Of a stretch of 64,000 nt of DNA, positions 16,808-18,359 are shown one piece after another. Made by a program: the position numbers and the translations under genes. The stretch comes from Escherichia coli (GTDB lineage Bacteria; Pseudomonadota; Gammaproteobacteria; Enterobacterales; Enterobacteriaceae): assembly GCF_044324785.1 (NCBI RefSeq), contig NZ_CP172127.1. The stretch is one strand, 5' to 3'. The notes beneath the pieces are model-generated. The model was not told the DNA's origin, ran no database searches, and worked only from the letters and a program-made list of their open reading frames with translations. The first letter of the stretch is position 1. The number at the start of each line of letters is the position of its first letter.

Positions 16808-17823
16808 AGCTCCACCCCGTAAATCCAGTCAGTGTTCGTCAGGTCGAGTTTTGGTTTGCCGGCTGTCACGCCAGCCTGTTGCTTGTTTCGGTTGATTTCG
16901 AGCTGGGTCCACTTGTCGCGGAGTTTGGCCGGACTTAGCACGTTACCGGACCAGAAGTTGTCCTGGCATGCCCAGCGGAACAGCACGCACATGTCGCGGT
17001 GGTTACGTCCGTCACGTTCACGCATCAGGCGGATATCGTTAGCCCACCCTGCAAAATTCGGTTTTCTGGCTGATGGCGCGATGGTCTTCACCATGTCAAA
17101 CATCCACTCTGCGGCGGTCAGGTCTTCTGCTGTCCCCCACTTGCTGCCGCTCTGAATTGCAGCATCCGGTTTCACCACAGGAAGATCGTTTTCTGGTTGG
17201 TCAGAGGATTCGCCAGAATTCTCGGACGAAAAAGGTTTTATATTGTCTTTTGTTAGTTTGTCTTTTGTGTTTACCTGATTCGGGTAAACGCCTTTACCTG
17301 ATTTGGGTAAACTTTTTTTACCTGATTCAGGTAAATTTACCTCTTTCAGGTAAACTTTATTTTTCTTACCTGATTCGGGTAATGTTGACCATTCACTGAC
17401 CACATTATTAATGCCGGTATTCCGCCCGCTCTGAATAAAAATCCCACGCTTTACCAGAACACTTTTTGCAGCAGAACACTTGTGCGGCAATATCCCGGTT
17501 AACTCGGAAAGTTGCTCGTTGCTCACCCAATCCAGTTTTTTATTAAAGCCATATGTTTTGCGCATGACAGCCAGGAAGACCAGAAGCTGGTGCTGTGTTA
17601 ATCCGGCCAGCATTACAGCTTCCAGCAACTCATTTGCAATGCGCGTATAACCATCATCGAGATCTGCCACGCGCGGCTCCTTTTGTGCCACATCCGGCAC
17701 TGGAAAATTGAATATCTCAGCAGTGTTTGCCATAATTCCTCCCGCAATGAGTGCGTTACGATTTGCACCTGAAAGTCGGCTCTGTTCCCGCAGACCGGCT
17801 TTCGCCATTTTTGAACCTGTCAT
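16804..17823 (-). CDS. O: Replication initiator O (contains ori iterons); start alternatively at 17733
   Basis: 339-aa ORF; from the Met at 17733 (MANTAEIFNF...) it aligns with the lambda O N-terminus; iteron-encoded repeat segment inside. Confidence 0.85.
   Translation of the reverse strand: MTGSKMAKAGLREQSRLSGANRNALIAGGIMANTAEIFNFPVPDVAQKEPRVADLDDGYTRIANELLEAVMLAGLTQHQLLVFLAVMRKTYGFNKKLDWVSNEQLSELTGILPHKCSAAKSVLVKRGIFIQSGRNTGINNVVSEWSTLPESGKKNKVYLKEVNLPESGKKSLPKSGKGVYPNQVNTKDKLTKDNIKPFSSENSGESSDQPENDLPVVKPDAAIQSGSKWGTAEDLTAAEWMFDMVKTIAPSARKPNFAGWANDIRLMRERDGRNHRDMCVLFRWACQDNFWSGNVLSPAKLRDKWTQLEINRNKQQAGVTAGKPKLDLTNTDWIYGVEL
17271..17384. repeat. Origin of replication iterons (ori-lambda type, about 5 copies of TTACCTGATTCGGGTAAAC-like repeat)
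   Basis: Direct repeats read in sequence inside the O gene, followed by AT-rich stretch. Confidence 0.75.
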
Positions 17824-18359
17824 ATTGCCCCCAGCATGGCGGTGACCATCGCCATCAATGGACCAGCCAGATCCGGGTCCACTCGAAACATCGACACAAT
17901 GCCTTCACTCATCTCCTTCAGTTTCTGGTGGCGTGGTGCGTTGAGAATGACCGCCTGCTTTGCCTCACAGAGTTCCTTTTCCATTTCAGCCAGCCGAGCC
18001 ATGAAGCTATCCTGCTCAACCAGGTGGCCGCGATATTCCAGCGGTAGTACCGCCAGAATTGCCGGGGTCAGTTCACGCACGTTATTTCGGTATTTTTCAG
18101 AATCGAATTTGTTATCGAGGAAGCGGAACAGCTTCTGGCGTGCACGGCTGACATCATCAGGGAAATCGATAGTGCCGCCGCCCTGCTCCCGATACTCATT
18201 CACAATGAGTGTGGCAACGACATCCTGATTATCTTCAGCCGACCAGGCGCGGACGGCATCACGGATTTTTTCGTGGCCTGGCACCTGTTTTGTTTGAGAA
18301 CGATTTATCACCGCAGTCGGGCTAAATCCGCTAGTCTGTTGGTATGTAAGTGGTTGCAT
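17820..18359 (-). CDS. CII-like lysogeny regulator (CP76/YdaT-type), in the cII position
   Basis: 179-aa ORF between cro-like gene and O; start of O overlaps its stop (ATGA); family assignment from position and weak remembered similarity. Confidence 0.4.
   Translation of the reverse strand: MQPLTYQQTSGFSPTAVINRSQTKQVPGHEKIRDAVRAWSAEDNQDVVATLIVNEYREQGGGTIDFPDDVSRARQKLFRFLDNKFDSEKYRNNVRELTPAILAVLPLEYRGHLVEQDSFMARLAEMEKELCEAKQAVILNAPRHQKLKEMSEGIVSMFRVDPDLAGPLMAMVTAMLGAI

Follow-up and report, generated by a model that had tools for sequence, protein, structure and literature searches.

What does a 179-residue protein do in the position where phage lambda carries cII? The question is raised by a window of 64,000 nucleotides of Escherichia coli DNA (contig NZ_CP172127.1 of RefSeq assembly GCF_044324785.1), in which a minus-strand gene at 17820-18359 lies between an analogue of cro and the replication initiator gene O. 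A first-pass annotation of the window had described the product as larger than lambda CII and unrelated to it, had suggested a CII analogue of the YdaT type, and had left it open whether the protein sets up lysogeny, is toxic, or both. The list of open reading frames (ORFs) confirms an ATG-initiated frame of 179 codons in this slot. Family membership, fold, gene order and a conserved distance between a protein-binding box and a -10 element point to a phi80-type CII, which would activate a box-adjacent antisense promoter, pRE, that feeds the cI repressor gene and favours lysogeny. The probability of this reading is put at about 80%.

The protein has a single match in Pfam, to YdaT_toxin (PF06254), with 101.9 bits against a gathering score of 21 and an expectation value (E) of 2.6e-29 over residues 67-154. 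In PHROGs it matches phrog_163, the “CII-like transcriptional activator” (E 2.6e-66). No NCBIfam model covers it, and a sequence search of solved structures picks up only CP-933P YdaT (8BT1) and the related 3C4R, each as a weak match (E about 1e-3). The phage relatives are much closer. A tblastn search of phage genomes finds the phi80 cII product, 65.6% identical over residues 1-179 with the N- and C-terminal extensions included, and genes annotated cII with 95-99% identity in the isolated temperate coliphages PhiR47_2, 4A7, Lambda_4C10, Perceval, D2, 1W, and 3W. Further relatives are found in Enterobacter phage CobraSix (72%), mEp237 (66%), and HK225 and HK639 (both 52%). Of the 5426 complete E. 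coli genomes, 2222 (about 40%) contain the cII DNA, and the protein clusters to which the product belongs have thousands of members across the Enterobacteriaceae. While RefSeq names the protein a ‘toxin YdaT domain-containing protein’, its phi80 homologue is cII in GenBank (X13065, JX871397), and one record reads ‘CII decision making protein’. Judged by its sequence, the 179-residue protein is a common transcription factor of the phi80-type CII or YdaT family, a long-form member of a kind already known. A role in lysogenisation is suggested by analogy, and it is the gene names in X13065 and JX871397 that suggest it.

The protein shows no similarity to the CII of lambda or of phage 186. Neither Phage_CII (PF05269) nor Phage_CP76 (186 CII, PF06892) matches the protein at E up to 0.1, and BLASTP gives no alignment with lambda CII at E up to 100. 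The lambda-type repeat TTGC-N6-TTGC occurs four times in the window, with 5.8 expected by chance, and never between 15 and 30 kb. The first-pass annotation was therefore right to separate the protein from lambda CII. Of the two families it had named for a hidden Markov model search, YdaT matches strongly and Phage_CP76 not at all. Its placing of YdaT in the cII position as a CII analogue is also supported, and the upstream neighbour matches YdaS_toxin (PF15943), so that a YdaS/YdaT pair fills the cro and cII slots.

The gene order agrees with this assignment. The gene for the 179-residue protein, called cII from here on, immediately follows a YdaS/Cro-type gene and precedes the replication genes, with the repressor gene divergent. 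The cro-like product also resembles P22_Cro, below threshold (22.8 bits, cut-off 30.2). Divergent from cro and cII is the cI gene, for which the Prokaryotic Genome Annotation Pipeline (PGAP) sets the start at 18764 in a frame that itself opens at 18698; cI is the expected target of pRE transcription. Downstream of cII on the minus strand are a lambda-O-like gene (16804-17823), lambda P (16106-16807), and a ren-like ORF. Translation of cII is served by a strong Shine-Dalgarno sequence, AAGGAG, 6 nt ahead of the ATG at 18359. An internal start at codon 17 (GTG), prompted by the point at which the PHROG profile begins, has no Shine-Dalgarno sequence before it, and was rejected because ATG 18359 has AAGGAG and is kept in all lineages.

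An AlphaFold2 model of the monomer, built from 30 homologues, has a mean predicted local distance difference test score of 80. Residues 1-23 are disordered in this model, and residues 29-113 form a five-helix helix-turn-helix (HTH) domain by a POU-like criterion, with helices at 29-43, 45-58, 70-81, 88-104, and 107-113, followed by a long helix at 119-138. The recognition helix, residues 70-81 (SRARQKLFRFLD), is preceded by an 11-residue loop (59-69). YdaT proteins are marked by an unusually long loop between alpha2 and alpha3 of the HTH, of 9-23 residues (PMC9986795), and the loop of the model falls within that range. In a Foldseek search of the PDB, 3C4R and 8BT1 are the only significant matches, both with a probability of 1.0, a target-normalised TM-score of 0.66-0.69 and about 26% identity; the next match has an E above 1. 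Arg79 is invariant in the 30 homologues and aligns with Arg57 of Rac YdaT, in which the double mutation H56A R57A abolishes DNA binding (PMC11879457). Helix 119-138 has a suitable length, in what is a monomer model only, for the alpha6 antiparallel four-helix bundle of the YdaT tetramer.

Compared with the YdaT proteins of Rac and CP-933P (140-141 residues), the protein has about 25 extra residues at its N-terminus and about 40 at its C-terminus. Two more helices are modelled within 143-178, ending in a conserved hydrophobic tail, PLMxMVTxMLGxx. The C-terminal extension, residues 140-179 (window 17820-17942), is not found in Rac or CP-933P YdaT, and its conserved non-polar tail reads GPLMAMVTAMLGAI. 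That this tail might control stability, on the model of the degradation signal at the C-terminus of lambda CII, is pure speculation.

The function of YdaT proteins is best known from two homologues. The YdaT of CP-933P is a tetramer that footprints on TTGATT-N6-AATCAA at the ydaS/ydaT junction (PMC9986795). It switches on an otherwise silent reverse promoter, PRE933P, and is not toxic; its homology to phi80 CII was already pointed out by Jurenas et al. (PMC8630535). Rac YdaT footprints on ATGATTCATGAAAATCAA, which spans its own start codon, and activates reverse, racR-directed transcription 29-fold in a box-dependent manner (PMC11879457).

A counterpart of this box can be predicted within the 5' coding region of cII. 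The segment at 18294-18311 falls into the register of the 18-bp YdaT box, and its counterparts in mEp237 and in Klebsiella phage 5 LV-2017 (locus L009) agree with the box at 10 of 12 positions. Exactly 20 nt past the predicted box, on the strand opposite cII, is TAGTCT. When ten lineages are aligned codon by codon, the consensus is ATGCA..Ca.T..C.t..CAaCA.a.TA.C.gA…TGATa.a.C....TCa. Codon 9 has T as its third base in 10/10 lineages although it encodes T, N, S, or G, and the same is true of codon 21, which encodes S, A, N, or C. At codon 17, xTG encodes V, L, or M. For Ile18 the rare codon ATA is used by 72 of the 74 distinct sequences, while its share of the other Ile codons is 15%. The DNA of the box region is conserved beyond the needs of the protein.

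The spacing extends over the family. On the antisense strand, the arrangement of box, 20 nt and TAnnnT is found in 15 of 17 YdaT-family lineages (13 among the first 14, plus both CP-933P-type relatives added later), with a spacing of 21 nt in pPE4 and Kp4882-1. In the 14-lineage profile, TAnnnT has a background of 0.34 of 14 sequences at each offset, and nothing shows on the sense side. The 20-nt spacing is held by Rac of K-12 (TATGAT, NC_000913.3 1420651-1420656), Rac-SA53, Citrobacter Chris1 (TATTAT), Aeromonas pAEv1818 (TAACAT), and a CP-933P-type phage (TATGAT), in all of which the sequence between box and TAnnnT is unrelated and is either non-coding or part of another gene. Phages of Klebsiella, like those of Citrobacter and Aeromonas, keep the spacing although this sequence defies alignment. 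Nine phi80-type lineages share a coding constraint and are not independent of one another; the independent contexts are Rac, SA53, the CP-933P type, Chris1, pAEv1818, and Klebsiella.

This geometry places the centre of the box at -41.5, the classical position of a class-II activator, and the -35 position of the predicted promoter reads CACCGC, which is no match to a -35 element. The sequence thus predicts a class-II, CII-dependent pRE with a start near 18344 on the plus strand, directed antisense through cro into cI. Its transcript would be complementary to the first 16 nt of the cII message and to the whole of cro before entering cI. The layout of the PRE933P reporter is consistent with a box-adjacent promoter: the forward cloning primer of this YdaT-responsive construct abuts the box and the fragment extends in the antisense direction, therefore the responsive promoter must be at or downstream of the box in that direction. 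One cII allele (97-99% identical) is also combined with either of two unrelated cro modules upstream, which join it at the ATG. Any site inherited together with cII must for this reason sit inside the gene, as it does in lambda. The first-pass annotation had suggested a search for a pRE-like promoter at 19460-19540 and nearby. That interval was rejected on orientation, since it is beyond the 3' end of cI, from where a promoter could not transcribe cI, and it holds only an AT-rich, imperfect 30-nt repeat.

The proposed sequence of events begins with expression of cII from pR, after cro. The product, presumably a tetramer held together through residues 119-138, would bind the degenerate YdaT-type inverted repeat in the 5' coding region of its own gene. 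From this site, whose centre is about 41.5 bp ahead of the start, it would recruit RNA polymerase to the opposite-strand promoter, which has a -10 element and lacks a -35. The pRE transcript would run antisense through cro into the gene for the S24-type repressor, raising repressor, lowering Cro, and favouring lysogeny. For binding, activation, start site, and effect on lysogeny, this proposal extrapolates from the experiments on CP-933P and Rac YdaT and from the naming of the phi80 gene.

Several points weigh against this proposal. Only 8 of the 12 positions of the window's box fit the footprinted consensus, and a composite scan of the whole window (box at least 8/12, 20 nt, TAnnnT) returns 12 matches where 8.7 are expected, which is not above chance. 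For that reason the predicted pRE rests on positional conservation, which in the nine phi80-type lineages is partly confounded by protein-coding constraint. The same scan shows no convincing second CII target of the pI or paQ kind near int or Q. Within the phi80-type subfamily, the experimental basis is the genetic naming of phi80 cII and nothing else. The literature on the homologues also words matters differently: the CP-933P structure paper has the box ‘downstream’ of PRE933P (PMC9986795), and the Rac paper credits the activation to a promoter called PracR4, about 190 bp from the box (PMC11879457).

The Rac attribution gives rise to a different reading, in which CII bound at the start of its own gene stimulates a distant sigma-70 promoter well inside cro. 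The strong, box-dependent response of the reverse reporter in Rac was ascribed to such a promoter. PracR4, however, is a BProm prediction, and the available text of the paper describes neither start-site mapping nor a PracR4 mutant under YdaT induction (PMC11879457). A promoter scan of the plus strand inside the window's cro finds no promoter-like site, TAnnnT stands at a fixed 20 nt from the box throughout the family, Rac included, and the CP-933P reporter fragment begins at the box. Distant activation is therefore unlikely. A smaller chance still is given to CII as a repressor or roadblock, which by binding within its own gene would limit read-through from pR into cII-O-P, as autoregulation and a delay of replication, and would activate no promoter. 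The box does lie within the transcribed cII-O-P unit; Rac YdaT binds also over PydaST and the start of ydaS (PMC11879457), and the structure paper on CP-933P uses the term ‘repressor’ for YdaT (PMC9986795). Both studied homologues nevertheless activate a reverse promoter in vivo, a roadblock leaves the conserved and phased opposite-strand -10 unexplained, and the GenBank names of the phi80 homologue speak of cII and of decision making. These facts make a pure roadblock improbable.

Very improbable is a YdaS/YdaT toxin-antitoxin pair with the 179-residue protein as the toxin. The idea is carried by names, namely ‘YdaT_toxin’ and ‘YdaS_toxin’ in Pfam and the RefSeq product name, and by the filamentation and death that follow over-expression of Rac YdaT. 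The label has its origin in a prediction algorithm, is disputed, and is unsupported by experiments. The toxicity of Rac YdaT is put down to transcriptional activation of rcsA, CP-933P YdaT is non-toxic, the fold is that of a DNA-binding HTH protein, and the gene occupies the cII slot of plaque-forming temperate phages. The choice between lysogeny and toxicity that the first-pass annotation called open is thus largely answered for the YdaT family by the CP-933P and Rac experiments.

A phi80-type CII acting at an adjacent pRE can be set beside four known systems. In phi80 (JX871397 / NC_021190 gp48; PHROG 163), the gene follows a cro analogue (gene 30), as it does here, and the N-terminal extension and hydrophobic C-terminal tail are common to both proteins over their 179/180 aligned residues. 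The predicted box and -10 lie within codons 8-22 and an M3/oop-like RNA follows the gene in both. The half-sites are TTGAGA...TATCAC here and TTGAGC...TATCAT in phi80. The surroundings differ: the window has a YdaS-type cro, a different cI, and lambda-type O and P, whereas phi80 has its genes 15 and 14. CP-933P YdaT and 3C4R share the Pfam family and fold with the window's protein, and their recognition helix is nearly the same, QKIFRWLDK against QKLFRFLDN here. In CP-933P, ydaT also stands between ydaS/cro and the replication genes, with a box at the 5' end of the gene and an antisense -10 after 20 nt. The protein of the window differs in its N-terminal extension of 25 residues, predicted to be disordered, and in about 40 extra C-terminal residues with two predicted helices. 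Because of the N-terminal extension, the predicted box lies inside the ORF here and across the start codon in CP-933P. The CP-933P box is a perfect TTGATT-N6-AATCAA, against 8/12 in the window.

Rac YdaT of K-12 (P76064) is 36% identical over the DNA-binding domain (E 2e-13) and conserves the Arg of the recognition helix. It shares the geometry of box, 20 nt and TATGAT, and it activates reverse transcription directed at the repressor. It differs in its length of 140 residues, without either extension, in its repressor, RacR, which is a different protein from the S24-type cI, and in having an extra host target, rcsA, and toxicity when over-expressed. Lambda CII (PF05269) occupies the like slot, after cro and before O, with 97 residues against 179. 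Its activator site lies over the -35 of a promoter in the 5' end of cII that runs antisense through cro into cI, which is the layout predicted here, and an oop-type antisense RNA lies downstream in lambda, as does a candidate in the window. Lambda CII shows no detectable sequence similarity to the window's protein, and its direct repeats have no counterpart near the immunity region.

Table 1. Features of the immunity and replication region, given as positions in the window
Feature	Position	Strand	Basis
cII gene, phi80 type (YdaT family), 179 aa	17820..18359	-	ORF, PF06254, PHROG 163, phage identities, AlphaFold2 model
Predicted CII (YdaT) box TTGAGAACGATTTATCAC, cII codons 17-22	18294..18311	+	8/12 against TTGATT-N6-AATCAA; synonymous-site conservation
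Predicted pRE -10, TAGTCT	18332..18337	+	TAnnnT 20 nt after box; comparative
cro analogue (YdaS family), 76 aa	18429..18659	-	PF15943 YdaS_toxin, 62 bits; PHROG 35, transcriptional repressor
cI-cro divergent control region, position of the right operator (OR)	18660..18763	.	Perfect palindrome ATGGTTGTT-N7-AACAACCAT at 18698-18722
cI-type repressor (HTH + S24 peptidase, LexA-type)	18764..19453	+	Peptidase_S24, HTH_3, PHROG 4
M3/oop-like antisense RNA candidate	17743..17812	+	Promoter TTGAAT-17-CATAAT at 17708-17736; hairpin and T-run
Replication initiator O	16804..17733 (probable start; longest ORF from 17823)	-	Phage_rep_O; PHROG 277 from residue 31

Between cII and O, clear of the cII coding sequence as in phi80, lies a segment that is likely, from its sequence features, to encode an oop-type antisense RNA (Table 1). 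Its promoter is the only promoter-like site on the plus strand in 17700-19600 by promoter scan. The hairpin and T-run at 17770-17812 have a minimum free energy of -25.2 kcal/mol (z -3.0), and the segment aligns with the annotated M3 RNA region of phi80 and with mEp237 and 4A7. A search of 16.5-20.5 kb with Rfam gives nothing credible. The same segment bears on the start of O. The first-pass annotation had the stop of cII overlapping the start of O, and the ATGA at 17820-17823 does form one with the longest O frame, the frame that PGAP also chose. The start at 17823 is probably too long by 30 codons, because homology to O begins at residue 31, the ATG at 17733, this ATG is preceded by GGAGG, and the 86 bp between the cII stop and ATG 17733 align with the M3/oop RNA region of phi80. 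The overlap is thus probably an annotation artefact.

The spacer between cro and cII contains the perfect 8-bp direct repeats AATTGACT, at 18360-67 and 18379-86, 19 bp apart. They were considered as CII sites and rejected, as phages of the 4A7 type carry the same cII allele behind an unrelated upstream module without the repeats. By this sequence comparison, they belong to the cro module and not to cII. The spacer (18360-18416) also holds a perfect boxA-like CGCTCTTTAACAA on the minus strand (18404-18416 in plus-strand positions), with no obvious boxB hairpin and no N gene identified. In the cI-cro control region, the palindrome is taken as an operator from its position only. A search of the window allowing up to 3 mismatches gives no second copy, which would mark the left operator (OL). 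The stretch 18688-18760 of this region also has the repeat GATTAAAACTATGGTTGT / GAATAAAACCTTGGTTGT. Right after cI on the plus strand, in the position of rexA/rexB, two ORFs (19536-20255) encode 87 residues without a family match and 147 residues with a coiled-coil segment and a hydrophobic C-terminus; they are possible lysogen-expressed accessory genes.

The prophage that hosts cII appears to occupy the argU (DLP12) site, a placement made not from the window but by sequence through strain ARS-C101, a relative that has a 100% identical immunity region across a 1001-bp query. Between the ren-like ORF and the nin region, at 11803-15793, are emrE, ybcK (a 508-residue serine recombinase), ybcL, and ybcM, as in DLP12 of K-12. 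ARS-C101 has IS3 and BRO/HEPN genes at the matching place, which is a slot for mosaic cargo. The canonical TTGATT-N6-AATCAA, with up to 3 mismatches, occurs in the window at chance level (39 against 40.5). Its only zero-mismatch copy in the 64 kb, TTGATTTCCCAAAATCAA, is at 11753-11770, where the naive expectation is about 0.004. This copy, in the spacer between ybcM and ylcH, closely follows a hairpin (11712-11738). It is part of a segment 100% identical in DLP12 of K-12 MG1655, and has no TAnnnT 20 nt away on either side. As a site linked to cII it was rejected, being 6.5 kb off in DLP12 sequence common to K-12 and without a phased -10. In K-12, Rac YdaT could meet a box of this kind in DLP12.

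The one new point in this locus is the conserved box-to-(-10) geometry; the rest is already known and ordinary. The chances are about even that all YdaT and phi80-CII regulators share a single, previously undescribed architecture, consisting of an 18-bp box at -41.5, 20 nt, and an opposite-strand TAnnnT with no -35. If they do, the CII-dependent pRE would abut the box, rather than being 190 bp away as credited in Rac, and the box would not be downstream of the promoter as worded for CP-933P. In the long-form proteins, the 25 disordered residues at the N-terminus would then be a translated promoter, conserved on account of the DNA and not of protein function, and the perfect box in the ybcM-ylcH spacer of K-12 DLP12 could be a second, cross-prophage target. 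The RefSeq name ‘toxin YdaT domain-containing protein’ is an instance of a widespread and misleading annotation, since the protein is most likely the lysogeny-establishment regulator of a common coliphage immunity module. From the box-to-(-10) spacing one can predict, simply and in a directly testable way, where the establishment promoter of any YdaT-type module lies, and the spacing suggests a second look at the position of the YdaT-activated promoter in Rac and CP-933P.

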